A stretch of DNA of 64,000 nucleotides from a virus. The stretch covers positions 160,001-224,000 of IMG/VR virus record IMGVR_UViG_3300031992_000005; one strand, given 5' to 3'. Shown here piece after piece: positions 3,643-64,000 of the stretch; within the stretch, counting starts at the first letter, position 1; each line of letters begins with the position of its first letter. Made by a program: the position numbers and the translations under genes. The notes under the pieces are model-generated. The model searched no databases. It was given only the letters and a program-made list of their open reading frames with translations, and was not told the origin of the DNA.

Positions 3643-3645
3643 TTT

Positions 3646-4143
3646 ATGAGGTATATTAAAATAACAGGCCCTGATGTAGAAAATGGTCTAGGTTTTAGAA
3701 CTACGTTATGGATTTCTGGGTGTAAGTGCCATTGTGAGGGATGTCATAATCCTGAAACATGGTCCTTCACATTCGGAAAGGAGTTCACTGATGAATCTTA
3801 TCAGGAGCTAAAGGAAAATTTATCCAAGCCTTATATCAAGGGGCTAACTTTATCTGGTGGTAATCCAGTTGATTCCCCGGAAGATTTATTAAGTTTATTG
3901 AAAAGAGTAAGAGAGGATTTTGGTAATTCAAAGGACATTTGGCTTTATTCTGGCTATGTATTTGAAGATCTCCTAAAGGATCCTCTATGTAAAGAAATTT
4001 TAGGCTTAGTTGATATAGTGGTAGATGGTCCATTTATCCTAAGCAAAAGAAATACAGCGCTCCCCTTCAGAGGTTCAGAGAATCAAAGAATTATCTTGGT
4101 TCAAGAATCCCTGAAAGAGGGAAATATAATCCTAAAGCAATAA
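3646..4143 (+). CDS. nrdG: anaerobic ribonucleotide reductase activating protein (radical SAM)
   Basis: Has the CxxxCxxC cluster in GCKCHCEGCHNPETW. It starts 3 nt after the nrdD stop. Confidence 0.85.
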   Translation: MRYIKITGPDVENGLGFRTTLWISGCKCHCEGCHNPETWSFTFGKEFTDESYQELKENLSKPYIKGLTLSGGNPVDSPEDLLSLLKRVREDFGNSKDIWLYSGYVFEDLLKDPLCKEILGLVDIVVDGPFILSKRNTALPFRGSENQRIILVQESLKEGNIILKQ

Positions 4144-4493
4144 TAAATAATCCATTCCTCAGGAGAAAACTCTTGGGGAATGGCATCTGCTGAATGAAAA
4201 ATATTCATTTATATCAAAAAATATTCAAAAATAAGCAAGCTTTTTAAAATCACGTGATATTTATATATGAATACTAAGATAAATAATAAAAAAAAATAAG
4301 TGAACTTATGAAACATAAAAATATTAAAGTTGTTTCGATTGACACTGAAAATATGTTGTATACTTGTGACGATGGTAATGAATCCATTAATGGATGGGCT
4401 TGAAACATTGTCAATAGAAGAGTTACAGAAACACATAGATAGTGCAAAACAAGCAACACTTGATATAATTGAAAAAAAAATAGAAAGTAGGCT

Positions 4494-6134
4494 ATGATTA
4501 TACAGAGTAAGTATACAAAGATATTCCATTCAAAGGATTTAACTCGTCAGAAGTATGATGAGTTAAATGACTTTGCTGTGCTTATTCAAAACCATAAAAA
4601 CACCGTGTCACAATACGTTAATGATAACATTCTTCATTTCTTGGAATACAATAAGTTCCAATTCCTTAAGGTAATGAGAGAACGTTTCAAAGAAGTTATC
4701 CCAAGTTCATTTGATGCACAACTTTATACACAAGTGTTCACTTGTTATCAGAATAAATTCGATGCAATACAACGTAAACTTGTCTTTGAAATCGTTACAT
4801 TTAAAGGATTTGAGTTTTATAAACGTGATACCAAGAAACATAAGGAAGGTGACTTGAAAAAAGTAGTTTTTGATAAGAAACAAACACCATTATCTAACTG
4901 TCTTACTTATCTTGCGAGATACAGTAATGAGAATACAATAGACTACATCAATGACAATATAAGCAAGTGTGACGAGAAGAAACGTGAGTTCTATAACAAC
5001 ATACTAAGATGTTGTGATAAATTCGGATTTGAACGTCTCTACAATCTTGCTTTGTCAAAAAGAAAACGTGTTGTCAAGCATTATTCTGAATATCCTATTG
5101 AGTTCAAGTCATTAACGTTCAGTGGTAGGTGTAGGAAGACAAGGATAATAGACTACAACAGTAGGTTTGGTTCAGTAATCAATTCATTCGTAAGTCTCAG
5201 TGGAATTGGTAGGAAATCATTTGATGTACCAGTTACCTTTAATAAAGGTTGGCATGGAAGTATGAAGGATTACAGAAAGAAAAATAACGATTATGAATAC
5301 ACGCTTACATTTAATGAAAAGAATCACCAAGTGAATATTCATCTGTGTAAAGATGGAGAAAGGTATATACCACAAGTACATGGTGAAACAATAGGCATTG
5401 ATGTTAATTGCAAACATAATTTGTTCAGTTTGTCAGATGAAACCACTTATGACTATGATAGAAAACTTGTTAATGACTTCTGTAAACTATCTCTTGAAAT
5501 AGATAAATTGAAAGAAAAAGATAAAAAATATAAGGTTGGTAAACGTAAACAGCAGAAACTTGATACTCTCAAATCCAAAATGATTAAGTCTGAGCAGCAA
5601 CTTATTGCTAATATGTGTAAGGTATTACATTCACAAGGTGTGGGGCATATTGTAATGGAAGACCTTGATAATGGATTTGGCAAATGCTATGTTAAAGATA
5701 AGGATAATGAGAATATAAATTACAACAGAAAGGTTAAATTCCTTGGCTTGAGTAGTCTTAAACAAGAAGTTGAGCGTATTGCAAAGAAATATGATATTGC
5801 GGTTTCAACAGTTCAAGCAAGTTATACATCGAAGATGTGTCCTATGTGTGGATGTATTGAGGACGAAAACAGACCAAACCAAGAAACATTTGAATGTGTT
5901 GAATGTGGACATAAAGATAATGCAGACTTTAATGCTGCAAAGAACATAAGGAACAGAGTGCTTGTAATCGTGTTACGAGATTTGCTCTTAAAACAAAAGG
6001 ATAATGGTGCTTTTGAGCCTAAGAAACTTAAACGTGAGAAGGTAAAGGAGGTATTGTTATCGTTTCGAAGAAGCCTACAAAATGTAGGAAGTGAATGTAC
6101 AGAAAGTAGTGTGACTACTTTTGACTATGTTTAA
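4494..6134 (+). CDS. tnpB: TnpB-like (IS200/IS605 OrfB / Cas12-ancestor) RNA-guided endonuclease, no tnpA nearby
   Basis: RuvC-I is IGIDVN, RuvC-II is HIVMEDL, the Zn ribbon is CPMCG...CVECGH and RuvC-III is NADFNAAKNI. All catalytic positions are present. Confidence 0.85.
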   Translation: MIIQSKYTKIFHSKDLTRQKYDELNDFAVLIQNHKNTVSQYVNDNILHFLEYNKFQFLKVMRERFKEVIPSSFDAQLYTQVFTCYQNKFDAIQRKLVFEIVTFKGFEFYKRDTKKHKEGDLKKVVFDKKQTPLSNCLTYLARYSNENTIDYINDNISKCDEKKREFYNNILRCCDKFGFERLYNLALSKRKRVVKHYSEYPIEFKSLTFSGRCRKTRIIDYNSRFGSVINSFVSLSGIGRKSFDVPVTFNKGWHGSMKDYRKKNNDYEYTLTFNEKNHQVNIHLCKDGERYIPQVHGETIGIDVNCKHNLFSLSDETTYDYDRKLVNDFCKLSLEIDKLKEKDKKYKVGKRKQQKLDTLKSKMIKSEQQLIANMCKVLHSQGVGHIVMEDLDNGFGKCYVKDKDNENINYNRKVKFLGLSSLKQEVERIAKKYDIAVSTVQASYTSKMCPMCGCIEDENRPNQETFECVECGHKDNADFNAAKNIRNRVLVIVLRDLLLKQKDNGAFEPKKLKREKVKEVLLSFRRSLQNVGSECTESSVTTFDYV

Positions 6135-8105: not shown

Positions 8106-9244
8106 ATGGCAGATGTAAATCTAGAATTATTAACAGACGAAGATATTATTGACTATACTAGATCAGATGGTCGTGATAGAATTGTTAATAATCATAGAGA
8201 CTTAAACTTAAGGTTTGATTACATAAAACCAGAAGGTGGTGGAGTGTATGATACTGAAATTTTTGGTTCCCCATATGAAGATAGATGTATTTGTGGTTAT
8301 ATTAGACAACCCTCGGCAGAGCCTTGTCCTAACTGCGGAGCACGTGTATATTCTATGGAAGAAGGCTTGAGACGTTTTGCCAGAGTTGAATTACCATTTT
8401 ATTATCTTAATGAACTTAGATTTAATATCTTTAAGGAATTTTTCGATAAGATATTTGAAGGGAGTACCATTAAGCTTGAATTTTTTGGTGATGACTTAAG
8501 GAGAAACGGTTATGCTGAAGGACGAAGTAAGAAAAAGCTTGGTATTAAAGTTTTTGATACTTGCCAGTTTGAGTATAATAAAGCTAAGAAGGAACTAACT
8601 ATTTCAGAGTTTATTACCGACGAATCCAAATGTTCCTACGAAGGTCTCATGAAGATTATTGAGGAAAATTTTCCTGAGAGTCTCATGGACTATAAACGGC
8701 TGATCAATAGATATTATCTTATACTACCAGCTATGATGAGAAGATTTAGTCTTGTCAAGGAAGGTACATCTACGAAGATGAATACTAACAAGCTGAGTAT
8801 ATGGTATTCTATTATAATTCGTCTCTGTTGTGTAGAAGATGATAAGAAAAATCCATCCAACTATAAAACAGTGATGGACATGTTTAAGACTCCTGGTGAG
8901 AGAGTAAGATATACTGCTCTCCTAAGAGCTCTTATTAATGTAGGTAAGAAACAGTCAACGGAGCTTCTAAATACTTCAAAGAAAAACTTATCACGAAAGG
9001 TTTATTCAGTTCGTGTAAAGAATTCTGCCAGAAGCCCTATTGTTCCAAGTACTACCTTGAAAGTAGATGAACTAGGTGTTCCTAGATATCTTGCTTATGA
9101 AATGTGTAGAGAGGGATTCATAAAATATCTTTGTGAAGAACTAAACTTTACTCCAGAACAAGCAAGAAAATCTACAAAAGATGAATCTGATAATCTTGAA
9201 CTGCAAAGACTCTTTAAGGAGTATGCAGAGAAAAGATACGTGCT
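8106..9244 (+). CDS. multisubunit RNA polymerase beta-prime-like subunit, exon 1
   Basis: N-terminal Zn motif CICGY...CPNCG. It ends ...KRYVL, and YVL|VTRQPVLH is restored after splicing (cf. LNRAPTLH). Confidence 0.8.
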
Positions 9245-12783: not shown

Positions 12784-13149
12784 ATGAATAAAAATAATGA
12801 TAGTTATTATTACAAAATAGTTTTGGCGTATGAAATACCATACAACGTCTTAGATAGTAACGATCCTGATAAGATCTTAGCTAGGGAGAATCTATATCAA
12901 GCGATAACTAAGATTATTCCCACTAGTAAGTATGATAAATTTTCAGTTAAACTTATGCTTTTTCAATTAAAGGATACGTTTAACTACGTGGTGATGTTTG
13001 ACTCTTTCTTTAGGTCTACAGAAGGTTTACCTATGAGTGAGTACACTGAGGCTAGTAAGATTAAACAGGCAGCTAAGGATGAACTAGAGAAATACTTTAA
13101 TTCACTCGACTGCGATTATAAACCACTGAATATAATTACATTATTATAA
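12784..13149 (+). CDS. hypothetical protein (between RNAP subunit genes)
   Basis: From the ORF track. Its stop overlaps the beta start (ATAATG). Confidence 0.55.
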   Translation: MNKNNDSYYYKIVLAYEIPYNVLDSNDPDKILARENLYQAITKIIPTSKYDKFSVKLMLFQLKDTFNYVVMFDSFFRSTEGLPMSEYTEASKIKQAAKDELEKYFNSLDCDYKPLNIITLL

Positions 13150-16100
13150 TGAGTAATTTTAATCAATTTTTCAAAAATCAAGGGGCAAAGACGATGGTAG
13201 AGCGTTTCTTTACCGGAATAGATGAATATACGCCAAATAAGAAACTAACAAACCTAACTTGGCATCTAGCCGAAGAAGATAAACGCCCAGCTTCATATTT
13301 CATAGAAAATGGATTAACTGCAACTCATAAGGTAATCCTGGAGTATACAATTAACTATGATGATGAAATTCGTACATCTGAGTTTGAAGTCCCTAGAGAA
13401 ATAGACGGTGTATTTATTATAGAAGGAGCTTATCGTATTGCTACTAATAACCTAGGAAAAGACTATGATTGTAGAATCAATATGTCAGGTACTGGTAGAC
13501 AATACATTAACTTTGACTATGGTAGAGAATATGACATCAAGACTGGTATTCTTAAAATAAAGAGGGTAAATCCTGACTTAGGTTTACCTGAAAAAGTAAG
13601 AGAATATAAGTTAGATGAAATAGATGAACTCAGTGGTATTGAAAAAGAAGTTCTAAAACTTTCTGAAAGACAGAGAAAGAAGTTTCAGGTAAAGCTTGAT
13701 ATTGATTATTCCCCGGATTATATTTCAAAGAAGCTTATCGAGGATTGTATTGCTTATGGCGATGATAGAATTCGAGATCTTATTATTGATAAGAAGATTG
13801 ATTCTGTTCCCGTTGGTTTTATGAAGTATATCTTCAATGGAGGTAATAATAAGAACTTCTATGGTACAAAATCCCAACTAAGAAACTATTGGAGTAAGCA
13901 AGGTAAGTTACAGGACCAGATTAATGTACTTACAAATCTTTGTGCTAGATACTGGAAAGGTAGTAGTTCAAAGAAGAAAGGAGAGGATAATGATGTTCAA
14001 GTTTCTCCTGGTGTAAATGCCATGAACCTGGAAAGTATCACGAATAAAATCTATATTCCTGAAACTGTAGCTTATAATACTACCTTTAGTGACTTGATTT
14101 GTGTTGGTGCTACACCAAATAATGGTAACATCGGTAAGCAGAATGCCTTGACTGTATCTACCCATATTACAGATGAGGATGTTCTCTTTGACTGTTATAC
14201 TACCAAGTTTCAAAAGATCACTATCCCATACTTGGATTATCTTAATCATAAGGTATGTGCTAGTGAGTACGTTGACTATGATACTAATACCGTTAAACCC
14301 GATAAGGATGGTAAGGTAGAAGTTAAGCATAGAATGCGTAGAAAGATGGTACCAGTGGAGGAAATTGAGTTAATTGACCTTCACCCAGACTATCGTTTAT
14401 CAGAAGAAGTAAGACGTATACCGTTTGTGAATTTTACTGACTCTGTTCGTATCTGTATGGGTAGTGGTATGTTAAAGCAAGCTATTCCACTTGTTAATGC
14501 AGAAAGACCTCTAGTAGATACAGGTAACTATGAAGAGCTTCATACAAACGTCTTGAATGAACGTTTTAAAGAAGAGTCTGGTGTAGTTAAGGATGTAAAT
14601 GAAGAGGGAGTATTAATAGAACTTCCTAATAAGGATGAAATTCTTATTCCAAGAAAAACTGCTATTCAGAGTATAAATGATGTTGACGTCTTTACTGAGC
14701 CTAAAGTTAAGAAAGGCCAAAAGGTAAAGAAGGGTGATGTTATTACTGGAGCAGTTGGCTTGGAAGAAGATACCTATAAAATGGGTATTAATGCTCTCGT
14801 CTTATTCCATGCAATGTTTGGTGATGTCAATGAAGATGCCTTAGTAGTTAGTGAGTCTTTCTCAAAGAAAATGCACTCTTACTCTGTTATCGACCTGATA
14901 TATGAAGTAAGAACTAATGAGGCAATCAAATGGATAGCTCCAATAGGTCAACAGGTAAAGTCTAAAGATCCCGTCATGATGACCTATAAGGCTGTTAAAC
15001 TTGACTTAGTCAATAAGGCCTTGAATGATAAATTAGGTGGTATCTTTGGAGATCAAAAACTAGATCTCTCTGAATATACTATTGAAAGTAACTTGGAAGT
15101 TCCTAATGACATTGATGAAGCTTATGTTAGTGATGTTAGAATTCAGGAAAATTTACACCCTAGAGTTCCTGGTGGTACTAAGAGACCTGACTTAACTTAT
15201 GCTCATACATCAGAGGAGACTATCAAAGATTATAATTTTGATAGAAAAATTATCTATGATAGATATCCAGAATATATTGCAGCAGATAGACTTAAGGATA
15301 TATCATTAGCAGATAAGGATTATAAGATTGTTTATGTAGTTCGTATTAGACTTATTAAGAGAACAAATCTTATGATCGGATCTAAGGTTACCAACCGTTA
15401 TGGTGGTAAGGGTGTCATTTCTAAGATCTTGCCAGATGATAAGATGCCAATCATGGTAGAATCTGCAACTGGTAATAAGAAAGTTGTGGATATTGTCATG
15501 AACCCTTATAGTACAATTAACCGAAAGATTCCTTCTGTTAATATGGAGAGTCTCTTAGGTTCAATTGCGCATAGAATTCATGACATAGTAGATGAGAGGA
15601 AAAATGATAAGAAAAAACAGGAAACTATCATGCCTCTTGTTCAGAAGTATTATCCTGGTCGATTTGATGGAATGACATTAGAGAAGTTCTTGAAGTTACA
15701 TGAAAATAGTAAACTTGAGGACGTATATTACTTCAATGTAGGTAGTTACTCTAGACTTACTCCAAAGCAGATAGATGAATGGGCAAAGGAATTAGGTGTT
15801 ACACCTCAATCAAAGATTCTCATGCCTAGTGATACTATCGCTGACCTTGATGAGCTTAAAGCGAACTTAAGTGAGGAAGAATATAATACCGCCGTTAAGA
15901 ACTTGACAGGTAGATACGTAGAAGTTGAAAAGCCACTTAGTGTTGGTTATATGACTATGGAAGAACTATATCAAATTCCAACTTATAGTGATAAGGTAAC
16001 TTCTAGTATGTTCGGTGTTGATGTTAATGAGTGGGTAGATTCTCCTATTATGGGTAGAGGTGGTTATAGAAAAACTGGTCAGATTATCGGTGAAATGGAG

Positions 16101-16310
16101 CTCATGGCATACTTGTCAAGAAATGCCAGAGATTTCATTAAGCTCTCTAGAGGAGATACCTCAAGAGAAGATAATCAGCTCTTCTTGAATAACCTCTTAG
16201 GTCTTGGTCTAACTGTTACAGACAGTAAGGGTTATAATCAGGGCGGTTCATCTCTCAAGAGTAGACTTGGTGAGATGAAGACTAAATTCAGACTAAAGAA
16301 TCAGAAATAA
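13149..16310 (+). CDS. multisubunit RNA polymerase beta-like subunit
   Basis: TNRYGGKGVISKILP (cf. SRHGNKGVISKI), VDIVMNPYSTINRKIPS (cf. LNPLGVPSRMN) and GQIIGEMELMAYLS (cf. GEMEVWALEAYG). Uninterrupted, 1053 aa. Confidence 0.85.
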   Translation: MSNFNQFFKNQGAKTMVERFFTGIDEYTPNKKLTNLTWHLAEEDKRPASYFIENGLTATHKVILEYTINYDDEIRTSEFEVPREIDGVFIIEGAYRIATNNLGKDYDCRINMSGTGRQYINFDYGREYDIKTGILKIKRVNPDLGLPEKVREYKLDEIDELSGIEKEVLKLSERQRKKFQVKLDIDYSPDYISKKLIEDCIAYGDDRIRDLIIDKKIDSVPVGFMKYIFNGGNNKNFYGTKSQLRNYWSKQGKLQDQINVLTNLCARYWKGSSSKKKGEDNDVQVSPGVNAMNLESITNKIYIPETVAYNTTFSDLICVGATPNNGNIGKQNALTVSTHITDEDVLFDCYTTKFQKITIPYLDYLNHKVCASEYVDYDTNTVKPDKDGKVEVKHRMRRKMVPVEEIELIDLHPDYRLSEEVRRIPFVNFTDSVRICMGSGMLKQAIPLVNAERPLVDTGNYEELHTNVLNERFKEESGVVKDVNEEGVLIELPNKDEILIPRKTAIQSINDVDVFTEPKVKKGQKVKKGDVITGAVGLEEDTYKMGINALVLFHAMFGDVNEDALVVSESFSKKMHSYSVIDLIYEVRTNEAIKWIAPIGQQVKSKDPVMMTYKAVKLDLVNKALNDKLGGIFGDQKLDLSEYTIESNLEVPNDIDEAYVSDVRIQENLHPRVPGGTKRPDLTYAHTSEETIKDYNFDRKIIYDRYPEYIAADRLKDISLADKDYKIVYVVRIRLIKRTNLMIGSKVTNRYGGKGVISKILPDDKMPIMVESATGNKKVVDIVMNPYSTINRKIPSVNMESLLGSIAHRIHDIVDERKNDKKKQETIMPLVQKYYPGRFDGMTLEKFLKLHENSKLEDVYYFNVGSYSRLTPKQIDEWAKELGVTPQSKILMPSDTIADLDELKANLSEEEYNTAVKNLTGRYVEVEKPLSVGYMTMEELYQIPTYSDKVTSSMFGVDVNEWVDSPIMGRGGYRKTGQIIGEMELMAYLSRNARDFIKLSRGDTSREDNQLFLNNLLGLGLTVTDSKGYNQGGSSLKSRLGEMKTKFRLKNQK

Positions 16311-29541: not shown

Positions 29542-29627
29542 GCCGGGATGACGGAATGGGTGAGACGTGACAGATTTAAAATCTGTTGGCTATTGCAGCC
29601 GTGTGGGTTCGAATCCCATTCCCGGTA
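29542..29627 (+). tRNA. tRNA-Leu (TAA)
   Basis: Acceptor is GCCGGGA/TCCCGGT and the anticodon arm is ACAGA/TTTAAAA/TCTGT. The long variable arm is GGCTATTGCAGCC and the T-arm is GTGGG/TTCGAAT/CCCAT. Confidence 0.85.
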
Positions 29628-29706
29628 CTTACAGCATTCGAACATGATATTTTTATGGTTTTTTGGAAGGGTCCGTCCGTGAGGGATAGATCCTTCTTTT
29701 TTTCTT

Positions 29707-29727
29707 CCCCTTAATGCCTTATATATG
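29707..29727 (+). promoter_or_regulatory. phage promoter-like consensus
   Basis: CCCCTTAATGCCTTATATATG. Confidence 0.5.
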
Positions 29728-29841
29728 TAATGTTTATTTTTCATTATTAATTTATTTTATATGTAATGTTTATTTTTCATTATTAATTTATTTTGAATTG
29801 GGAAGAGTCAGTCCGGGATGGATAGACTCTTTTTTTTTTAT

Positions 29842-29864
29842 CCCCCCAATGCCTTATATATAAG
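29842..29864 (+). promoter_or_regulatory. phage promoter-like consensus
   Basis: CCCCCCAATGCCTTATATATAAG. Confidence 0.5.
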
Positions 29865-29936
29865 ATTCCATTTTTATATTTTTATATTGGTTTTAGAAGG
29901 ATCAGTCCGAGATGGATAGATCTTTCTTTTTTATTC

Positions 29937-29960
29937 CCCTTAATGCCTTATATATATAGA
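29937..29960 (+). promoter_or_regulatory. phage promoter-like consensus
   Basis: CCCCTTAATGCCTTATATATATAG. Confidence 0.5.
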
Positions 29961-30031
29961 AATTTTGTTTTTACCATATTTAAATTGGGAAGAGTCAGTC
30001 CGAGATGGATAGGCTCTTTTTTTTTACCCTT

Positions 30032-30056
30032 CCCCATTAATGCCTTATGTATATAA
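30032..30056 (+). promoter_or_regulatory. phage promoter-like consensus (drives gene at 30068)
   Basis: CCCCATTAATGCCTTATGTATATAA. The ATG at 30047 lies inside this motif. Confidence 0.5.
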
Positions 30057-39658: not shown

Positions 39659-39693
39659 GAAAGGAAGCAGAGATTGTTTCCCTTTCTTTTTTT
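39659..39693 (+). terminator. intrinsic terminator, copy 1 of a 3-copy hairpin family preceding tRNA cassettes
   Basis: GAAAGGAAGCAGAGATTGTTTCCCTTTC plus a T-run. The same hairpin occurs on the - strand at 52031-52058 and 52807-52834. Confidence 0.6.
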
Positions 39694-43316: not shown

Positions 43317-43424
43317 TTTTGTTTTTTTTTATTAAGTTAATAATTATATATATAAGGCTTTAAGGGGAAAAACTCACTTGAGGACCCCTCTATTCTTTAC
43401 CTATGAATATAAATTTAAAGTTTA

Positions 43425-51028: not shown

Positions 51029-51068
51029 AATTCTTAATTTTTTTTTCGTTAGACATTTTCTTTATAAA

Positions 51069-51093
51069 CTCTATATATAAGGCATTAATGGGG
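51069..51093 (-). promoter_or_regulatory. phage promoter-like consensus (- strand, drives 50438..51028)
   Basis: Reverse complement is CCCCATTAATGCCTTATATATAGAG. Confidence 0.5.
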
Positions 51094-52030: not shown

Positions 52031-52058
52031 GAAAGGGAAACAATCTCTGCTTCCTTTC
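52031..52058 (-). terminator. terminator hairpin family copy 2
   Basis: Reverse complement is GAAAGGAAGCAGAGATTGTTTCCCTTTC plus a U-run. Confidence 0.55.
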
Positions 52059-52592: not shown

Positions 52593-52640
52593 TACTCTAT
52601 ATATAAGGCATTAGTTAACATTTGGGGAAGAAAAAAAAAA

Positions 52641-52761
52641 TAATTCGAGAGGGAATCGAACCCCCGACCTCCCCGATATATTAGCTTTATATACCTGGTG
52701 TTCTACCTCAGAAAACCTAAACATAAGATCTAATCGTAGATTTTCTCTGAACTATCGAATT
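52641..52761 (-). tRNA. aberrant 121-nt tRNA-like gene (canonical acceptor and T-arm, expanded D-loop and anticodon arm, anticodon undetermined)
   Basis: AATTCGA-TA-GTTC-[45-nt loop with hairpin AGAAAATCTA...TAGGTTTTCT]-GAAC-A-[28-nt arm CCAGGTATAT/AAAGCTA/ATATATCGGG]-AGGTC-GGGGG/TTCGATT/CCCTC-TCGAATT-A. It has the same promoter/terminator cassette as tRNA-Lys. Confidence 0.45.
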
Positions 52762-52806
52762 ATTCTTATATATAAGGCTTTGAAGGGTTATATGGAAGAA
52801 AAAAAA

Positions 52807-52834
52807 GAAAGGGAAACAATTTCTGCTTCCTTTC
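52807..52834 (-). terminator. terminator hairpin family copy 3
   Basis: Reverse complement is GAAAGGAAGCAGAAATTGTTTCCCTTTC plus a U-run. Confidence 0.55.
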
Positions 52835-52856
52835 TTTTTATGTTGTTTTAGAAGGG

Positions 52857-53066: not shown

Positions 53067-53211
53067 AATTTTCTTAATTTTATTAAATTTAACATCATAT
53101 TAATTATCTCTATATATATAAGGCACTAATATGGTTTTGGGGAAGGAAAAAAAGATCCACCTTCACAGGCAGATCCTTTCATAATTCTCGAAAAATTCAA
53201 CAATACATATG

Positions 53212-54267: not shown

Positions 54268-54375
54268 AAAAAAAATCCATAGCTAGGTAAGACACATTCT
54301 GTCGTTTAGTTGGCTGAGCGGGTTATGTGAATTACTAAGAATCACCGCAAGCATCTTATCTGCTATGGACTATAG
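54268..54375 (-). ncRNA. candidate structured RNA co-transcribed 3' of tRNA-Leu (8-bp closing stem plus U-tract)
   Basis: On the - strand, TCCATAGC...(78 nt)...GCTATGGA is followed by U8. An internal arm GTGATT/CTTAGTA/AATCAC mimics a TAG anticodon loop, and there is no T-loop. Confidence 0.3.
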
Positions 54376-54458
54376 TGCGCCTGACAGGACTCGAACCTGC
54401 ACGTCACCGAGACACTTGATCCTAAGTCAAGCTTGGCTACCAATTACAACACAGGCGC
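54376..54458 (-). tRNA. tRNA-Leu (TAG)
   Basis: Acceptor is GCGCCTG/CAGGCGC and the anticodon arm is CTTGA/CTTAGGA/TCAAG. It has a long variable arm, and the T-arm is GCAGG/TTCGAGT/CCTGT. Confidence 0.85.
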
Positions 54459-56242: not shown

Positions 56243-56351
56243 ATTTAATCATTTTTTTTTATTGTTAAACTTATATATATAAGGCATTAATAGGGAAGGA
56301 TAAAAAAAAGTAGACCAACCGCCGTTAGTCTACTATAATACGAATTCTTGT

Positions 56352-56938: not shown

Positions 56939-57369
56939 GGGGATAATGCCTTATATATGTAATTTATATTATCTTTCATACATGTTTACTAAAGGGGATC
57001 GTCCGTGATGGATATATCCCCTCATTTTTTTGTTCAAAAAAAATAGGATCGAGATATACATATTACTATGTATAACCCTGACTGACTATTCTTTTTGAGA
57101 TTTATTATACTCTATATATATCTATTTATAAGGCATTAAGGGGAGAAAAAATACCGCCCCAGAAAGAGAAAAATGCCTTATATATAGAAACAGACGCATA
57201 ATAATTTAATTTCATAATAATAACTAGGGGATCGGTTCGTGATGAATAGATCCTTTTTTTTTCATATCCCTTTAATGCTTTATATATGATCATAAAAAAT
57301 ATTTTTTTAAGTTTGAAAATAATGATTGGAGGATCAGTCCGGGATGGATAGATCCTCTTTTTTTTTTTG
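56939..57369. repeat. four ORF-less mini-cassettes (three on +, one on -)
   Basis: + promoters are at 56939, 57170 and 57267, with family hairpins at 56993-57022, 57226-57255 and 57328-57357 plus T-runs. The - promoter is at 57110-57145, with a hairpin plus U-run at 57036-57075. Confidence 0.55.
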
Positions 57370-57403
57370 TTCAAAAAAAATCCCCCGACACGGGGATTCC
57401 TTT

Positions 57404-57702: not shown

Positions 57703-57848
57703 GAAAAAAAAAGAGAGGGGAACCCGTTTTAGAGAGTTGACTGATCGTCTGTGCGTCTGTGGGTTCCCCGGAGTGCAGCTGAGCCCGTCCTTTCGATCAT
57801 CGGCGGGGTCCGATCTGCTGCAATTTTCTAAAATCTAATTCCTTTATG
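57703..57848 (-). ncRNA. candidate G+C-rich structured ncRNA of unknown class with own promoter and terminator
   Basis: The - strand promoter CCCCTTAAATCCTTATATATG is at 57851-57871. Stems are TGCAGC/GCTGCA, ATCGG/CCGAT and GGGGAACCC/GGGTTCCCC plus a U-run. It is strikingly GC-rich in an AT-rich context and has no ORF. Confidence 0.5.
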
Positions 57849-57850
57849 TT

Positions 57851-57871
57851 CATATATAAGGATTTAAGGGG
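57851..57871 (-). promoter_or_regulatory. phage promoter-like consensus (- strand)
   Basis: Reverse complement is CCCCTTAAATCCTTATATATG. Confidence 0.5.
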
Positions 57872-57885
57872 ATTTCAGATTCTTC

Positions 57886-58497
57886 AAAAAAAAGAGAGGA
57901 TCTATCCGTCTCGGACCAATCCTCTAAAAATTATTTAACCTAAATATGATTGTTATGAATGTTTTACATATATAAGAGTTTAAGGGGATAAAAAAAAGAG
58001 GATGACCTATCACAGGCGACCCTCTTCTTCAATAACAAAAATTTAAATCTTTAAATCTATGGATATAATATACAACATATATAAGGGTTTAAAGGGATAA
58101 AAAAAAGAGGAGATCTATCCATCTCGGACTGATCTCCACCTGACATCTGAATATACATCATACTAAAATGAGAGTATTACACGTTAATAAGGAATTAAGG
58201 GGATAAAAAAAAAGAGAATCTATCCATCTCGGACTGATCCTCTAATAAGAAACATTCTATTAATTCTTAAACTTTTACATATATAAGAATTTAAGGGGAT
58301 GAAAAAAAAAAAGAGAATCTATCCATCACGAACTGATCCTCTTCAGAGTAAAATAAACATTACACGTACATATATAAGGCATTTAAGGGGTATAAAAAAA
58401 ATGACCGACTCATCACGAGCCAGCCATTGAATAATTTTTGAACTTTTTTTACCCAAGAAAAATAAGTACTTTCATTTATAAGAATTTAAAGGGATTT
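57886..58497 (-). repeat. tandem array of six ORF-less mini-cassettes directly downstream of polA
   Basis: Period is about 100 bp. Promoter motifs are at about 57967, 58073, 58175, 58272, 58363 and 58470. Family hairpins are at 57894-57925, 57998-58027, 58107-58137, 58214-58243, 58313-58344 and 58402-58426, each with a U-run. Confidence 0.6.
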
Positions 58498-58545
58498 GAG
58501 AAAATAGACCAGCCCCACATTAAAGGCTGGCCCACAGAATTAATA

Positions 58546-58935
58546 TTATAGTCGGTGAAACCTAACGGTCACCTTTGATACATCCATCGATATAGAACAA
58601 CCATTTTCTAAGATTGTTCTGTAATATGGATCTTCAATCATCTTCTTTTCTGATACTAGCTCTTCCCTAGTCTTATCACATTCACACCTGATACTAGGGG
58701 AATTCATTAATTTGTCATAAATTAATATAAGATTACTAGCAGGACCAGAAAATTCTATCGTATTTTTGTCTATCTGCGTTAATGGACATGCAGATTCATA
58801 TCCATATCCACACAAAAGATCAAACAGTAACTTTATCTTTGGCCCAATAGTTGCACAATAATCCGTATATTTTTCATCATAATATGCCCTAATATCAAAT
58901 ATGTGATCTATTGGAATAAGATTAGTATTAGAATC
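58546..58935 (-). CDS. polA: family-A DNA polymerase, last exon
   Basis: Begins DSNTNLIPIDHIF..., and joining to ...QPIITVH restores motif C (VHD). The first 4 codons of ORF 58546..58947 are intron. Confidence 0.65.
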   Translation of the reverse strand, partial: DSNTNLIPIDHIFDIRAYYDEKYTDYCATIGPKIKLLFDLLCGYGYESACPLTQIDKNTIEFSGPASNLILIYDKLMNSPSIRCECDKTREELVSEKKMIEDPYYRTILENGCSISMDVSKVTVRFHRL

Positions 58936-59237
58936 CGTTCTCTTCACATAAATTCGCTACATTTATGCCGGGCAATGCCACAGCTAATCATCTCTGATTA
59001 GACGAGACTATATCTTCAGTAAATAATTACTGCCTACTTTTTCGAACACCCATCGCTTGTGCTCTACTCTACTCACTTCTTCAGGTTTCCCCTATGCTTT
59101 CGATAGTCGTTGAATAAGTTTATAACTTACTGCTGATTGACTCTATTCATTGGATTTTTACTTCTATTCGATAGTACCAATGACCTAACAAGTTGTTCCA
59201 GCAATTAAGTAGGTTTATAGTGCACCATAAACTAACA
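58936..59237 (-). mobile_element. group I intron, ORF-less (polA intron 5)
   Basis: P1 is GUGCAU/GUGCAC with U.G at 59238. It has the Q element AATCAGCAG, CGACTATCG ... AAGATATAGTCTCG and terminal G at 58936. It is homologous to the ends of intron 60663..62159. Confidence 0.7.
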
Positions 59238-59637
59238 ATGCACTGTAATAATAGGTTGTAATGGTTGCTTCCAACCATCTTTAATTGATGACCTAATATT
59301 ATTAAAGAATCCACTAGCCATAATTGTACTAGTTCCTCCTTGAATAGGTAAATTTACACCTAATCTTTTGATTCTGGCAATTATATTTTGCGCTTCTTTT
59401 TGATCTTTTGCTTTTGGCAAATATTCATAATACTCCCTTAACCTTAATTTGTCTCCTAACATGGTATTAATGTAACCATCATGATCTAATGGATACTGAC
59501 CCTGAGACTCCACATATTCCCTGAGCTTTGGAAAAGACTTATATAAACTCTGGATAATATTCTCAGCTTCTTCAACAGAACTATCTAGTCGAGCTGCTAA
59601 GGAATTTTTCCCTAAGCCGTACAATACACCCAAGAAT
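59238..59637 (-). CDS. polA: family-A DNA polymerase exon (fingers/motif B)
   Basis: Reads (I)FLGVLYGLGKNSLAARL... and NLPIQGGTSTIMASGF (cf. N.PIQGSAAD), ending ...IITVH. Confidence 0.8.
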
Positions 59638-59932
59638 CATTACTACTCATAATTTCTTATGAGATTAGACTATATCATTATCCGATTATTCGGATAGGTT
59701 GCACTTCGGAATAGAGAATTTCACTCTAAACCTACTCCTCGGTTAAAATTATTTTAACGTCATAGGATAGTCGTTACACTTTCTTAGACTAATCTAAGCT
59801 TAGCACGGTATTGGCATATCTTATTATTAAGACTTAGCTTTCCACCGTTAGCACTAATAAATTAGTACACCCTAGATTTCTAGGTTCACAACCTTTTCAT
59901 TAACTAATTACTTAGTTATGCCACATCTATCT
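59638..59932 (-). mobile_element. group I intron, ORF-less (polA intron 4)
   Basis: P1 is CCAU/GUGG with U.G at 59933. It has AACGACTATCCTATGACG ... AATGATATAGTCTAATC and terminal G at 59638. It is near-identical in core to nrdD intron 3. Confidence 0.7.
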
Positions 59933-60080
59933 ATGGTCTTGAATTTCTTTCTATAAGTCTTTTGTTCTTTTTTACTAAGGTTATTCCAACCTTCTTCACC
60001 TAAATATAGTTTCGAACTATATATGTATATGTCTTCTCCAGCGTTGAACTTACTTATTAGATCAGGATCCAAAGACGCGT
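59933..60080 (-). CDS. polA: family-A DNA polymerase exon
   Basis: Reads (Y)ASLDPDLISKFNAGEDIYIYSSKLYLGEEGWNNLSKKEQKTYRKKFKT(I), cf. Pol I ...S.D..L..AF..G.DIH..TA......R..AK..NFG. Confidence 0.7.
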
Positions 60081-60336
60081 CAATTTTGTTATCCTTAGAA
60101 CTTTTTATTTCTAAGTTCAATTGATTCTTAATTCTCAATTGTTCAGCATATATTTTCACCCTATTAGATAGGGTGGGGAACACTCGTGGTAGGATTATTC
60201 TATTCGTCACCTACTATGCGTTACACTACTAGGATACCTTTAATATTATCTTAGTTAGCACGGTATTGGCATCTCAGCTTTCACCGTTTTTGCTCCCTGT
60301 ACCCCGTAATATTACTATTACGGTGGGCAATTTTTT
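60081..60336 (-). mobile_element. group I-like intron, ORF-less (polA intron 3, same family as nrdD intron 2)
   Basis: P1 is GGGU/GCCC with U.G at 60337. It has GGGAGCAAAAACGGTGAAAGCTGAGATGCCAATACCGTGCTAAC. The 3' module CTTAGAAATAAAAAGTTCTAAGGATAACAAAATTG ends in G at 60081. Confidence 0.6.
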
Positions 60337-60350
60337 ACCCCGCGCTCTTA
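60337..60350 (-). CDS. polA: inferred 14-nt polA micro-exon
   Basis: TAAGAGCGCGGGGT supplies ..(I)KSAG(Y).. between two introns, which keeps the frame and motif A. Confidence 0.4.
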
Positions 60351-60647
60351 CAGATTGTTACCCTATAGGCTTTTTATCCTATAGTTCTATGGATTCATTT
60401 TATCCATAGCTCGGCATATATTTTCATCCTAGATAACTAGGATGACGGACACTCGTGGAGAGATTATATTTATTCACTCTCTATGCTCTACACTACTTAC
60501 TTAACCTTTCGCAATTTAAATAAGTTAGCACGGTATTGGCATCTCAGCTTTCACCGTTTTTGCCCGTTTATTATCACTTACATTACTATAAGTGACGGCT
60601 AAATTTTAACCTCGGCACTACTACATTGTGTTCAGGAGGCACGTTAC
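60351..60647 (-). mobile_element. group I-like intron, ORF-less (polA intron 2, same family as nrdD intron 2)
   Basis: P1 is GGAGAU/GCCUCC with U.G at 60648. It has GGGCAAAAACGGTGAAAGCTGAGATGCCAATACCGTGCTAAC. The 3' module CTATAGGATAAAAAGCCTATAGGGTAACAATCTG ends in G at 60351. Confidence 0.6.
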
Positions 60648-60662
60648 ATCTCCCGGTTCTCA
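60648..60662 (-). CDS. polA: inferred 15-nt polA micro-exon
   Basis: TGAGAACCGGGAGAT supplies (I)ENRE(I). Its Glu aligns with the conserved motif-A Glu (DYSQIELR). Confidence 0.4.
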
Positions 60663-62159
60663 CTTAGCTAAAACTAAGATGAACTCCTACATATCTCTAT
60701 GCAGATCAGACTATATCTTAATCTCATTTCTGAGATTCTTACCGTTTCCACTTAACGATTTCAAGTGTACTCCCATTACTGGGATAGTCGTTGGGGTTTA
60801 AGAATTTAATCAGTTAGTCGGGCTGATTTTCTTTTATTTTTTGAATAAGGACATTACTGTCTGTAATTACTTCAGTGAAATATCCATATTTTTCGTAAAT
60901 TTTTATTTCATTAGTGAAATATAATAATGGTATATTATTTTTCTTAGCATAATCGTACTTCAGATGATCCCTTTTTATAGCAATTTCTGAATAACGTTTA
61001 TCGTTAGGATCAAAATGTTGACACCCATGATACTCTACTAAGATATTATATTCTGGTAAATAAAAGTCAAACCTAAGATGTGATATATTCTTTAAATCTG
61101 GGTAAGTTTTCTCAGATGTAAATTCAATATTATTTCCCGTAAATAGGTCTGCCAAAAATAGTTCCCCATTAGAGTTAATGAGCGGGAATATGCTATCTTT
61201 ATCATCATCAGATAATAATAAGAACCTATAATAGCAATTACGAAATCTTCTATAAAAATCCTTCCTAGATAGGATATTATTGTCAGCAATAAATACCTTA
61301 AAATCTTCTACCGTATTAATATTAGAGTAATCTCTATTATTGTTTGGTAATAGACTTTCTTTCTCCTCTTTAGATAAGAGTCTACTAAATCTGCAATATA
61401 CTTGCTCAAATCTACGACAAAGATCTATTCTGGAGGTTATATTATTTTCTTGAATAAATGAACGAAAATCCTCATATGTATTTATATACGAATAATCTTT
61501 TAGCATACTAGGGAGAATTCTATTTTGATCTTCACTACTCAATTTAATAAACTTATTATATCCTCCTCGAAATCTTTTTTGAAAATCATAACGGCCTACA
61601 ATTTCGTATGTTTTAATGAATTTCCTAAAATCATCCTCAGTATTCAAAGTAGAGTAATCTGCCTTTTTTATAGTTCCTTTATAAGGTAAAATAGTTTCTT
61701 GCTCTTCCTTTGATAGAAAGTTTAAGAACCTAAGATAAGCCCCAGGATATTCAGTATGTAATGTTTTTCGAGAGTGAATATTATTAGTTTTAATAAACCT
61801 TTTAAAGTCGTTTGCAGTATTGAGATTAGAATAATTACCTAAGTTCGAAGGCAGTAATTTTTCTTGTTCATCATTACTTAATTTCTTGAAGCAATTATAA
61901 ACCTTTCTATACTCCTCTCTCAGCCTAGACCTCTTCTCAATACCATTATCTTTTATAAATTTTTTTATTTCCTCATAATCCATTTTTTTTTTAAATTTTA
62001 ATTTTTTTCGTTCTTCTTAAACCTGCTGATTAACTCTATTCCCTAGATTGTTACTGCCGTGACTAAATCGGCTAGTACTAGAGACCTAACAAGTCTTTCC
62101 AGCATTTAGTAAGTTTGTTTTTCATAAGGTCACCCTTATGTGACACTAGTTTCTAGTTA
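60663..62159 (-). mobile_element. group I intron with homing endonuclease gene (polA intron 1)
   Basis: P1 is GACAU/AGUGUC with U.G at 62160. It has the Q element TTAATCAGCAGG, CGACTATCC ... AAGATATAGTCTGATC and P9 CTGCATA-GAGA-TATGTAG. The terminal G is at 60663. Confidence 0.7.
60814..61983 (-). CDS. intron-encoded homing endonuclease, PD-(D/E)xK / Vsr-like (EDxHD-type) nuclease domain with 5 N-terminal tandem repeats
   Basis: It has five repeats of about 55 aa (N.x.DF+.FI..NNI.SR...). The C-terminus is ELFLADLF...LRFDFYLPEYNILVEYHGCQHF...KRDHLKYDYAKKNNIPLLYF. Confidence 0.65.
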   Translation of the reverse strand: MDYEEIKKFIKDNGIEKRSRLREEYRKVYNCFKKLSNDEQEKLLPSNLGNYSNLNTANDFKRFIKTNNIHSRKTLHTEYPGAYLRFLNFLSKEEQETILPYKGTIKKADYSTLNTEDDFRKFIKTYEIVGRYDFQKRFRGGYNKFIKLSSEDQNRILPSMLKDYSYINTYEDFRSFIQENNITSRIDLCRRFEQVYCRFSRLLSKEEKESLLPNNNRDYSNINTVEDFKVFIADNNILSRKDFYRRFRNCYYRFLLLSDDDKDSIFPLINSNGELFLADLFTGNNIEFTSEKTYPDLKNISHLRFDFYLPEYNILVEYHGCQHFDPNDKRYSEIAIKRDHLKYDYAKKNNIPLLYFTNEIKIYEKYGYFTEVITDSNVLIQKIKENQPD

Positions 62160-64000
62160 ATGTCAAAATATGTTAGTAATTGGTCATCCCCACCATATAT
62201 GATATTTCCATTTTTGTTCCGAATTGGAGCAGGAATTAAGCAATTTTTGACAGGGCTATGTGAGGGAATCGTATGAAAACTTGATGACCAGCGTTTACTT
62301 GATTTTTTGAGTACTTCGTATGGAGTAAAATTCTTCTTTACTGCTCCTGGTTCATCCGGATCTGCATCTCTAATTGGAATATGATGCTCATCTTCAATTA
62401 CCCATTTTGCCCTCTTATTAAACATTCCATCTGGACCTACATACACACTTAACATTTTCGCATGTTTCTTATATATGAGGTAGTTGAGTGTGAATTTTCT
62501 CATAAAGTAGAAATCATTACTGAGATCTACCTCAGGATCAAATGGGCTTTCATAATTTAAGTAATCACCCTGATACTCTGGAAAAAGTTGTGTTTGTGTG
62601 TTAAATCCAAGAAAATCTGTCCAAATTTCCTTTACTTTATCTGCGGTTTGATATAAAACTGTCTCTACACCTTTCACACTAACTTTTTTTCCAAGTTTAG
62701 GGCTACCATAAAATTCGAATGCTAGGTCAAATACTTTCTTCGGGTATAATGGGCTTTCGTATTCGCCATTACTGTCATAATACTTTTTCCATTCATCTAA
62801 CATTTCTTGATAACCTTCATCTATATCAGTAATACCTCTACTTGAATAGAATTTTGTTGTCTCAGGTAACTGCTGGATACTTTCTGACATGGCAGCTAAG
62901 AAAGCAGTTTTTCCTTTAAGTCCAGGAATGATAGGATTAACCATCATATCATATACGATTTTATCATTCTGTTCTGGACTAAGACACATGAAATAATTAT
63001 CAGATAGAAACTTAGAATACTCCAAGAGATCCATTTTCTTACCAAAGATATATATTTTCTCTGGGATATTATGAATATCCTTAAGCTGTTTTTTATTTAT
63101 TTTTTCCAGCTCAGTATATATCTTTCGATAATACATGTATTTCTCAAGTTCTATATGCTTCTTATTAATCTTTCCCTCTGAATCAAATTTAAGACTATCA
63201 ATTCCGAAGAGATGTATTGTTTTTTCTGCCAGGACCCCTAAGAATTTCTTTTTCCTAATAATACCTTCGTCGATCTTACCCTTTAACTTAACTTCGCTTG
63301 CAGCTTGTCTAACAAAATCTACGAATTTTTCTCCAAAGTCCTGTCCATATTTCATAACAAGTCCTCCCTCATTTAATCCAGTTTCTGTTGAATCTAGGTA
63401 ATCGAGATTACTTGTTAAGATATATTTTAAGATTTCAATTATATTACCTTGAAAAAAGTTTCCTTCTTCCAATAGTTTTACAGCAATTGGCTTATATCTC
63501 TTTATATTAGTAGCCAAGGATTGATGTTTTTGCATCTTTATCCAACAAAGAGCTCTAGTTGCCCAAGTACTAGACCAAGCCATCATCTCCTTACAATACT
63601 TTTCAAATCTAAGTCTGAATGGCTCATCTATATAGTGGCCATGTGACATAAGTCTTGCGCCAAGTCTCAGGTTATCTAAGAAAACGTTGAAACACTCTTC
63701 TGTATACTCAGACTTTTTCTTAAGATAAATCATAAGAGTATAGAATGAGTCAAGGCAGCAATACTTTCCTAAGATTTCACTTGGGATAGGCATGAATTGA
63801 TTTCCCCAATACTCTAAGATCAGTTCCTTAAATTCATCTTCATATCCAGGATATCTCTTACAAATTTCTCCCCATTCAGGAGTATTTGTAAAGTTTTCTG
63901 GGGTTACTTTTAATTCTAGGTGAATGTCCTTCTTAAGTTTACCAACTTCCTCCAATAGCATGTGTTCAATTAAGTCACTAAGTCTATCGAAGTCAGAATC
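62160..64000 (-). CDS. polA: family-A DNA polymerase, upstream exon (5' end outside window)
   Basis: The frame is open to the window edge (DSDFDRLSDLIEHMLLEEV...). It ends ...GGDDQLLTYFD(I) at the start of motif A. Confidence 0.75.

Follow-up and report, generated by a model that had tools for sequence, protein, structure and literature searches.

Tandem promoter-hairpin cassettes without a payload share their terminator hairpin with tRNA trailers in an uncultured jumbo phage

A tRNA 3' trailer can reportedly act as an RNA in its own right, the example being 3'ETS-leuZ of E. coli, from the 2015 work of Lalaouna et al. The 3'ETS is mentioned in PMC6191717. Short composite cassettes and short RNAs are known from phages as well. 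The PeSL elements of T4-like phages are promoter-early stem-loop cassettes (PMC2839356, PMC4122927), and the principle they embody is that repeated promoter/terminator modules serve as recombination substrates that reshuffle phage genomes. Racr solitary repeat units consist of a promoter, some tens of nucleotides and a repeat-like hairpin, and they act in a dose-dependent way (PMC10651486). The jumbo phages 201phi2-1 and phiKZ, which have multisubunit RNA polymerases of their own, make sRNAs that span less than 250 nt from start site to terminator, and one of these mini-units adjoins a tRNA (PMC11512511, PMC8244752). Otherwise, hardly anything has been learned about non-coding RNAs in jumbo phages, a handful of single sRNAs from phiKZ-type phages being all that is reported.

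The locus described here lies downstream of polA in the window, by which we mean the whole 64,000-nucleotide stretch of viral DNA that was analysed. It resembles each of these systems in part. Like PeSLs, it is built of short composites of terminator hairpin and promoter, repeated in plastic intergenic regions and forming insulated cassettes, and close strains differ by indels and replacements with the crossover inside the motif (contigs L017, L050 and L051). PeSLs, however, have sigma-70-type early promoters and flank ORFan genes, whereas the present phage, a jumbo phage that encodes a multisubunit polymerase, has a different promoter motif of 21 nt, and its array cassettes lack ORFs and end in hairpins of a single covarying family in which certain loop positions never change. 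Promoter type, phage group and the absence of flanked ORFs thus exclude the units from the PeSLs proper; the mechanism is PeSL-like, but the element is not a PeSL. The predicted unit RNAs would be molecules like the trailers that are released from this phage's tRNA-Leu(UAA) and tRNA-Arg precursors—a 34-40-nt AU-rich stretch, a terminator hairpin and a U-tail—and to that extent recall 3'ETS-leuZ, with the difference that they would be made from promoters of their own and not from behind a tRNA. As with Racr units, a phage-encoded, promoter-proximal short RNA would end in a conserved hairpin, and dosage would matter; in contrast to them, an exact-match scan found no similarity to CRISPR repeats, and the hairpin doubles as an intrinsic terminator that also stands behind phage tRNAs. 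The sRNAs of 201phi2-1 and phiKZ, finally, come from single loci and derive mostly from 5' UTRs, and tandem arrays with one hairpin family have not been reported for them. Composite promoter/terminator cassettes and short phage RNAs are, then, known kinds of element. What appears new is their combination, tandem payload-less cassettes that share a covarying, loop-invariant hairpin with tRNA trailers; the preliminary description knew of no phage system with this exact layout, and neither did the phage collections and papers that we searched yield one.

Units, promoter and hairpin

Array A comprises six consecutive units on the minus strand, each reading promoter motif, AT-rich segment, hairpin and T-run (Table 1). 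The promoters measure 21-22 nt, the variable segments 27-48 nt and the hairpins 25-31 nt, and 8-11 T follow. Six ORF-less units of about 100 bp downstream of polA, with U-runs of 8-11, had been described beforehand; we find the same six, with U8-11 in all of them, and more units elsewhere in the window. The variable segments had been put at 22-45 nt, which our reading corrects to the lengths just given, and the hairpin consensus offered at the time fits four of the six hairpins: the stems of A0 and A4 differ, while keeping to the same design with a GUGAU loop. Directly upstream of the array, the last polA exon ends in a terminator hairpin whose sequence is unrelated to the family. A seventh unit, U6, follows downstream, with the array A type of promoter and a GC-rich RNA candidate in place of the short segment; the candidate has a long-range terminator stem of its own and U9, is kept in all strains, and has no match in Rfam. 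An eighth promoter copy, after U6, precedes an 83-aa gene.

Table 1. Positions of the units, arrays and neighbouring features in the window
Feature	Position	Strand	Parts and remarks
Array A	57886-58493	-	units A0 to A5, read from 58493 to 57886
Unit A0	58394-58493	-	promoter 58473-58493, CCCTTTAAATTCTTATAAATG; variable 58427-58472 (46 nt); hairpin + T-run 58394-58426, GGCUGGCUC-GUGAU-GAGUCGGUC; U8
Unit A1	58302-58390	-	promoter 58369-58390; variable 58342-58368 (27 nt), with TAATGTTTATTTT in common with unit B1; hairpin + T-run 58302-58341; consensus hairpin, U11
Unit A2	58205-58298	-	promoter 58278-58298; variable 58243-58277 (35 nt); hairpin + T-run 58205-58242; consensus hairpin, U9
Unit A3	58099-58202	-	promoter 58182-58202, variant CCCCTTAATTCCTTATTAACG; variable 58138-58181 (44 nt); hairpin + T-run 58099-58137; covarying outer stem GGAGAUC/GAUCUCC, U8
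Unit A4	57990-58096	-	promoter 58076-58096; variable 58028-58075 (48 nt); hairpin + T-run 57990-58027; divergent hairpin GAGGGUC-GCCU-GUGAU-AGGU-C-AUCCUC, U8
Unit A5	57886-57987	-	promoter 57967-57987; variable 57925-57966 (42 nt); hairpin + T-run 57886-57924; hairpin loop GAGAC, U8
Unit U6 (seventh)	57704-57871	-	array A promoter type; 147-nt GC-rich RNA candidate
Last polA exon terminator hairpin	58507-58533	-	directly upstream of array A
Array B	29629-30032	+	tRNA-Leu(UAA) trailer with family hairpin 29629-29703, then B1-B3
Units B1, B2, B3	29707-29841, 29842-29935, 29936-30032	+	ORF-less
Array C	56946-57368	+	C1 56946-57031, C2 57173-57262, C3 57268-57368; interleaved with - strand promoters
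tRNA-Leu(UAA)	29542-29628	+	directly before array B; trailer of 40 nt + family hairpin
tRNA-Arg 3' trailer	53147-53210	-	34-nt AT-rich segment; hairpin GGAUCUGCCU-GUGA-AGGUGGAUC; U7
tRNA-Leu(UAG)	54375-54458		trailer differs from the family hairpin type
TnpB/Cas12f1-like gene	4494-6134		

At least 12 ORF-less units are present in the window: the six of array A, and three each in arrays B and C. Array C is on the strand opposite to array A and converges with the 3' end of the 83-aa gene. ARAGORN and Rfam detected no tRNA or RNA family inside the 12 units, nor do these contain an ORF; at a permissive threshold, Rfam returned for array A only McaS, at E=0.28, which we take to be chance. Micro-ORFs were considered and dropped: the ATG that ends the promoter meets TAA at once in A2, A5 and B1, and the units have no frame or peptide in common. 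An 82-aa ORF on the minus strand at 57126-57374 is nothing other than hairpins read backwards.

The 12 units match bona fide tRNA units of the same phage in their promoter and in the family of their terminator hairpin. That the tRNA-Arg and tRNA-Leu genes use the same cassette layout had been claimed already, and it is borne out, the tRNA-Leu concerned being tRNA-Leu(UAA) and not tRNA-Leu(UAG). A covariance model built from the hairpins (R1) scores the tRNA-Leu(UAA) trailer at 47.6 bits and the tRNA-Arg trailer at 38.4 bits. The units themselves are neither tRNA genes nor remnants of them, for the two programs call none and the variable parts are about 80% AT. The label 'emptied tRNA cassette', one of several proposed in the preliminary description, therefore needs qualifying: a tRNA-type cassette without a tRNA is what the data suit best, but not a cassette whose tRNA has eroded in place. 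Erosion may be seen elsewhere. The tRNA-Lys cassette has a whole paralog at 52.7 kb with promoter and terminator intact and the tRNA payload decayed beyond recognition; neither ARAGORN nor Rfam confirmed a tRNA identity for it.

The promoter consensus is CCCYTTAA-N3/4-CTTATATATG, a contiguous 21-mer ending in TATG. The sequence CCCYTTAANNNCTTAWWW occurs 18 times in the window against an expectation of 0.38, a count reached by none of 100 shuffles, and a looser pattern brings the copies to about 29, all of them intergenic and co-oriented with the element that follows. Some precede small genes elsewhere in the window; nearly half (about 14) precede units with no protein or tRNA product, and seven stand at a spacing of 91-116 nt. 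The motif lies 20-35 nt upstream of start codons, the mRNA leaders between being A-rich and without a Shine-Dalgarno sequence, and 5-11 nt upstream of tRNA 5' ends, so that transcription probably starts at or near its last bases. The late promoter of phiKZ is TATG, with the G as +1 (PMC4666361), and if phiKZ can serve as a guide—it is an analogy only—the most likely start is the final G or a base beside it. There is no enrichment of sigma-70-like sites (60 against 51.5 +/- 8.1). The motif is kept in two distant relatives whose polA is only 56-58% identical (L008 and L009), and it occurs in L003, a 254-kb IMG/VR contig of no established relationship to the phage; this recurrence would fit a phage-encoded specificity. 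Promoter activity, the start site and transcription itself are predictions from the DNA sequence.

The hairpin core gives six matches at up to three mismatches where 0.00 are expected. The family has 14 copies in the window, exactly the set that R1 finds there, and 17 distinct sequences when the strains are added. Across these 17, the 12-bp helix is 97.1% paired, and 11 of its 12 pairs have changed on both sides; none of 500 shuffles does as well, and pairing drops to 34-57% once the 3' strand is shifted out of register. One G.U pair is present in all 17. The loop keeps the same base at positions 1, 3 and 4 (G-N-G-A) in every sequence, and A0, A4 and the tRNA-Arg trailer are no exception, although their stems differ from the rest at most positions. 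The G.U pairs form only in the RNA of the promoter-bearing strand. Covariation and strand-specific wobble pairs make the hairpin a genuine RNA-level structure. Some 12 protein-gene terminators that we read in the window are built on other stems and loops, unrelated to these. Terminator-like sites number 22 between 50 and 64 kb, against 7.9 +/- 3.1, and hairpin, T-run and promoter together form one repeated module of about 65-70 nt. An ordinary terminator needs no fixed loop and no wobble pair, and we therefore infer that the hairpin has a sequence-specific partner. Gene conversion among the repeats could explain why promoters and hairpins stay similar, with no need for every unit to be selected, and conversion tracts may account for some of the 'compensatory' changes. 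The family was found only in strains of one phage species, and its conservation is accordingly shallow in time. The units had been described as having the layout of independently transcribed small RNAs. As architecture this holds up—the promoter motif, the brief 5' stretch without structure and the shared 3' hairpin are all real—while expression is predicted.

The phage and its strains

Neither blastn with the locus nor tblastn with the 602-aa polA exon found anything in INPHARED, and the polA fragment is at most 29% identical to that of any phage there (Maribacter and Bacillus phages). IMG/VR, queried with the polA exon, the hairpin, the promoter and a two-promoter pattern, returned nothing related save single promoter matches; the five matches to the two-promoter pattern lie inside a coding region and are chance. 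The N-terminal polA exon, on the other hand, has hundreds of homologs, at 47-98% identity, on ENA/Logan contigs of 240-600 kb, one of the contigs in the 83-aa protein's cluster is 353,905 nt long, and the window encodes an RNA polymerase beta-like subunit (Rpb2_6). The source is therefore an uncultured jumbo phage, of about 354 kb, with its own multisubunit RNA polymerase; it is unrelated to the T4-like phages. Seven distant relatives (L004 and L006-L011), with polA 56-71% identical, have other genes after polA, no array, and no match to R1. Scanning metagenomes for hairpin plus promoter yielded 21 loci, of which one (L048) is related and the rest appear to be chance.

Closer strains were found as contigs encoding the proteins that flank array A, and among them the array proves to be highly changeable. 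The window has six units, L017 and L020 have five, L050 has four and L051 has three; L016 and L022 are identical to the window. In L017 and L020, whose 83-aa gene is 97% identical in nucleotide sequence, A4 is missing, and at the junction stands a chimeric promoter in which CCCTTTAAAC of A4 runs into TCTTATATATG of A5. L050 (90% identical) has A0, a unit X that replaces A1 and A2, then A3 and A5. L051 has A0, a diverged A1, and one unit that combines the A3 variable segment with a chimeric A3/A5 hairpin. A4 is thus absent from L017, L020, L050 and L051. The deletion junctions fall inside promoter or hairpin repeats. U6 and the 83-aa gene are kept in all lineages, A0 and A3 are retained everywhere, and the retained units have, in all four lineages, an intact promoter, stem pairing and U-run. 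It had been considered in advance that the units might be decaying remnants, with relatives holding only intact tRNA genes. The relatives do not bear this out: they keep intact promoters and hairpins, and no tRNA remnants lie inside their units. 

Array B varies as well. It is intact in L048 (97.5-98.7%), and a 36-nt internal duplication in B1 is missing from L059, which comes from sample ERZ27257202; the same sample also holds a contig 100% identical to the window. In L019, a contig 99.75% identical, the A4 slot holds sequence that resembles the 3' part of a long-arm tRNA, and there the contig ends. ARAGORN and Rfam did not call this end a tRNA; the variant could be an assembly chimera, and we treat it as a lead only.

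What the units may be for

We favour, tentatively, an explanation in which the arrays are a non-coding and highly plastic island made from one modular expression cassette. The promoter would most likely be read by the phage-encoded multisubunit RNA polymerase, starting at or next to the final G, and would be followed by a short, AT-rich, unstructured and weakly constrained leader. The terminator would be the one hairpin family, with its 12 covarying base pairs, invariant G.U, G-N-G-A-Y loop and U8-11. Each unit, transcribed alone, would give an RNA of about 68-87 nt, of the same design as the trailers of the tRNA-Leu(UAA) and tRNA-Arg precursors (34-40 nt AT-rich, hairpin, U-tail); from that likeness of design, the units can be looked upon as tRNA-type cassettes without the tRNA. 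Promoter and hairpin repeats would act as substrates for homologous recombination, by which units are deleted, fused and replaced between strains. Selection seems to fall on the promoter and the hairpin and not on the variable segment, and for this reason we would place the function in the hairpin-terminated RNA, whether in its dosage or in a partner shared with the tRNA trailers. Many copies of such an RNA might engage the same factor that handles the trailers, a processing, stabilizing or termination-modulating protein perhaps. Taken as a whole—payload-less tRNA-type cassettes, reshuffled as PeSLs are, with selection on the hairpin and function in the RNA that it terminates—this is the explanation we would choose at present, at somewhat less than even confidence, and any function of the predicted RNAs is conjectured from their sequence. 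Should the RNAs be produced and the hairpin prove to have a partner, the units would make a compact and testable system, with a 21-nt promoter, a 30-nt hairpin and natural variants of three to six units. It could then be used to study initiation and termination by a phage multisubunit polymerase, and to look for RNA decoys.

Comparison with L050 and L051 illustrates where the constraint lies. Promoters are 91-92% identical and hairpins 94-95%, with no more than one gap column, and the variable segments are 93% identical where they can be aligned, gaps making up 17% and 9% of their columns. The flanking genes are 85-90% identical at third codon positions, by which measure the variable parts do not substitute any faster; it is their length and their middle portions that are free. 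In predicted folds the 5' parts are largely open and the 3' hairpin is dominant. For the most part the segments show no kinship, either among themselves or with the tRNA trailers. The strongest signals, A1 with B1 (13 identical nt, p=0.003) and B2 with the tRNA-Leu trailer (p=0.017), are uncorrected for 105 comparisons, and with relatedness this weak a common origin of the units from tRNA cassettes is plausible rather than demonstrated.

Much of this might be expected also if the arrays were inert recombination debris, empty shells that arose as promoter/terminator modules were duplicated and recombined unequally, and that are kept by gene conversion and by the low cost of short terminated transcripts. 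The range from six units to three among close strains, with the junctions inside repeats, would be natural for debris, as would the freedom of indels in the variable segments and the lack of targets in the window, and the tRNA-Lys paralog is a ready example of a decayed payload between an intact promoter and an intact terminator. Debris does not account so easily for the retained units, which keep promoter, pairing and U-run in all four lineages, or for the presence of A0, A3 and U6 everywhere. Nor does it account for the G-N-G-A loop and the G.U pair, which are invariant even where every stem position has changed; conversion alone hardly explains this, because conversion is evidently not at work on the divergent A0, A4 and tRNA-Arg trailer. 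Phage genomes, moreover, do not keep direct repeats stably, and arrays of no benefit should therefore collapse to a single unit. On balance, we consider inertness unlikely, yet by no means far-fetched. If the units were inert after all, they would extend the PeSL principle beyond T4-like phages and beyond cassettes that carry genes.

Quite unlikely, in our estimation, is that the units encode trans-acting antisense (seed-type) sRNAs or guides, the variable 5' part pairing with phage or host RNA or DNA and the hairpin serving as a handle. The predicted anatomy matches that of bacterial base-pairing sRNAs, which have a promoter to themselves, a 5' part free of structure and, at the 3' end, a terminator hairpin with a U-tail. 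A3 and A5 each begin with 14-16 nt that do not differ between any of the strains, as a 5' seed might, although at such low divergence the identity is not significant. The variable parts, however, tolerate indels and, in B1, a 36-nt duplication, and from strain to strain entire units disappear or give way to others. Within the window, which is 64 kb of a phage genome of about 354 kb, exact complementarity to the variable segments extends over 11-15 nt at the longest, no better than for shuffled segments (mean 11-14, maximum 15-18). The guide or seed role suggested in the preliminary description thus finds little in the variable parts to recommend it. The phage does encode a TnpB/Cas12f1-like protein, as a guide-based role might lead one to expect. 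Guides of type V and TnpB proteins sit 3' of the scaffold, though, a polarity opposite to that of the units, and the gene, which is more than 50 kb from array A, has no repeats adjoining it.

Attention can be shifted from the 5' part to the hairpin. The units might specify at least 12 autonomously transcribed mini-RNAs in which the hairpin is a specific protein-binding handle, the RNAs being either decoys that at high dosage disarm a host protein—an RNA-binding immune protein, say, or an RNA-processing one—or carriers that present their 5' segments to a phage effector. The invariant loop and wobble pair from which we infer a partner would suit this, but we regard it as decidedly improbable. 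Were it true, it would add a novel class to the RNA weapons of phages, one patterned after the tRNA trailer.

A narrower proposal is that the units are anti-defence decoys of the Racr type, their hairpin imitating some host RNA, be it a CRISPR repeat or a different hairpin to which protein binds, and titrating a host protein. The layout is that of solitary repeat units (PMC10651486), the hairpin has invariant positions, and the units are multi-copy with promoters of their own. We searched 185,579 species genomes for the 21-nt hairpin core and found seven matches, all in Bacteroidales and all encoding the motif ISPGWID of one dehydrogenase-type family; as evidence of host mimicry these were set aside, being codons of a single enzyme family and coincidental. 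None of the seven is in a repeat array, a weak negative, the scan having been for exact matches across species genomes at large. The hairpin is, besides, a full-length palindrome followed by a U-run, and it lacks the single-stranded handles that CRISPR repeats usually have. Its use at the end of the phage's own tRNA trailers suggests a part in the RNA handling of the phage itself. A decoy of this type is accordingly very improbable.

Least probable of all is that the arrays work at the level of DNA or of transcription, as an R-loop-primed origin in the style of T7 or T4, or as factor-controlled terminators gating read-through into U6 and the 83-aa gene. Array A does lie beside the polymerase gene, its promoters leading into segments of about 80% AT, and arrays on both strands converge in a 1.6-kb stretch with only one ORF. 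GNRA-like pentaloops are bound by antiterminators, as boxB is by lambda N, and the G-N-G-A-Y loop bears some resemblance to these. Against this, there are three separate arrays within 64 kb, the module also stands behind tRNAs, unit number is not conserved, the strong stem and U8-11 of every unit should release transcripts efficiently, an invariant G.U makes sense for RNA but not for duplex DNA, and GC skew displays no feature at array A beyond the change in gene orientation. Two familiar classes of array were rejected: a CRISPR array, in view of the irregular 91-116 nt spacing, the promoter and terminator in each unit and the lack of nearby cas genes, and a type III antitoxin (ToxI-like) array, in view of the unique cores, the individual promoters and terminators, the failure of TRF to find a tandem array and the want of a toxin-gene neighbour.

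The family hairpin is not the only repeated one in the window. A second family, GGAAGCA-GAGAU-UGUUUCC, is present in three copies upstream of tRNA-type promoters, and its loop, too, is GAGAU.

RNA candidates in and around the cassette arrays

Beyond the last cassettes of array A lies a seventh unit, U6, in which the array promoter is followed by a GC-rich, 147-nt RNA candidate (see the table for coordinates). Its core, CCGAUGAUCGAAAGGRCGGGC, is conserved, and the stem of its terminator is long-range (GGGGAACCC/GGGUUCCCC). Each of the four strain lineages retains U6, and indels occur in its terminator loop. Nothing in Rfam matched it, and no covariation was found in the alignment, which comprises four sequences only.

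Array C harbors an ORF-less unit of ~200 nt on the opposite strand, complete with its own promoter and terminator. This unit spans C1, the first cassette of the array, in antisense, and so the C1 RNA and the minus-strand RNA, both of them predicted, would be fully complementary. An 82-aa 'ORF' on the minus strand here was rejected as an artefact: it is the array C hairpins in backward reading, and it contains the repeated peptides RIYPSRTDP and RIYSSRTDP.

The variable segment of B1, the first cassette of array B, includes a 36-nt tandem duplication that begins within the TATATG of the promoter. The duplication occurs in the window and in L048, a 97.5–98.7% identical strain, but not in contig L059 (4632–4720) from sample ERZ27257202, even though another contig of that sample matches the window at 100% identity.

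Coordinates of features in the window
Feature	Position	Strand	Remark
U6	57704–57871	-
Antisense unit of C1	56927–57143	-	promoter 57126–57143; terminator 56942–56927
82-aa 'ORF'	57126–57374	-	artefact
B1 variable segment	29727–29798	+
tRNA-Lys paralog	52630–52835	-
Second-family hairpins	39663–39681	+
	52036–52054	-
	52812–52830	-
polA, stretch with the introns	58984–62150	-
polA exon ORFs	62153–63961, 59908–60210, 59232–59633, 58546–58947	-
Group I intron matches (RF00028)	58984–59262	-	Rfam, 63 bits
	59646–59892	-	Rfam, 49.6 bits
	60387–60618	-	Rfam, 38 bits
Fourth RF00028 match	60687 (start)	-	Rfam
389-aa ORF	60814–61983
TnpB/Cas12f-like gene	4494–6134	+	546 aa
RNA polymerase beta-like subunit	13149–16310	+	1053 aa

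A second hairpin family and variant tRNA genes

A second conserved family of terminator hairpins, GGAAGCA-GAGAU-UGUUUCC, has three copies in the window, one of them with the loop GAAAU. Its loop is identical to that of the main family, and immediately downstream of every copy is a tRNA-type promoter.

The entire tRNA-Lys cassette has a paralog that shares its upstream hairpin, promoter, acceptor, T-arm and U-run, but differs by a ~36-nt insertion 3' of the D-stem and by an altered anticodon arm. Neither ARAGORN nor Rfam calls a tRNA here; the paralog is either a decayed tRNA gene or an interrupted one. In L048, tRNA-Leu(UAA) is split by an insertion of ~850 nt (3571–4420, versus window 29559–29599) that contains one ORF and a group-I-like GAAGAUAUAGUCC element, with no Rfam call at the gathering threshold. 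Since the window copy is uninterrupted, the insertion may represent an intron presence/absence polymorphism. In L004, a relative of 58% identity, two tRNA-like genes (8190–8520 and 8550–8900) look interrupted by long inserts within or close to the anticodon loop; the tRNAs of L004 are clustered, without a promoter for each.

Introns, messenger leaders and phage proteins

Several group I introns interrupt polA, and the fourth match appears to house a 389-aa ORF.

Messenger leaders that follow promoters are A-rich and 20–35 nt long (e.g. 56250–56294, 43320–43367 and 51050–51092), and none in the window has a Shine-Dalgarno sequence, which hints at a host, one of the Bacteroidota for example, that initiates independently of such sequences.

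A Cas12f1-like TNB domain (PF07282, E=1e-16), together with PHROG matches to 'transposase', identifies a TnpB/Cas12f-like gene in this jumbo phage; no repeat array and no obvious guide-RNA region lies beside it. Another protein carries Rpb2 domain 6 and matches PHROG RNA polymerase beta. This phage has a multisubunit polymerase of its own, a property it has in common with phiKZ-type jumbo phages.
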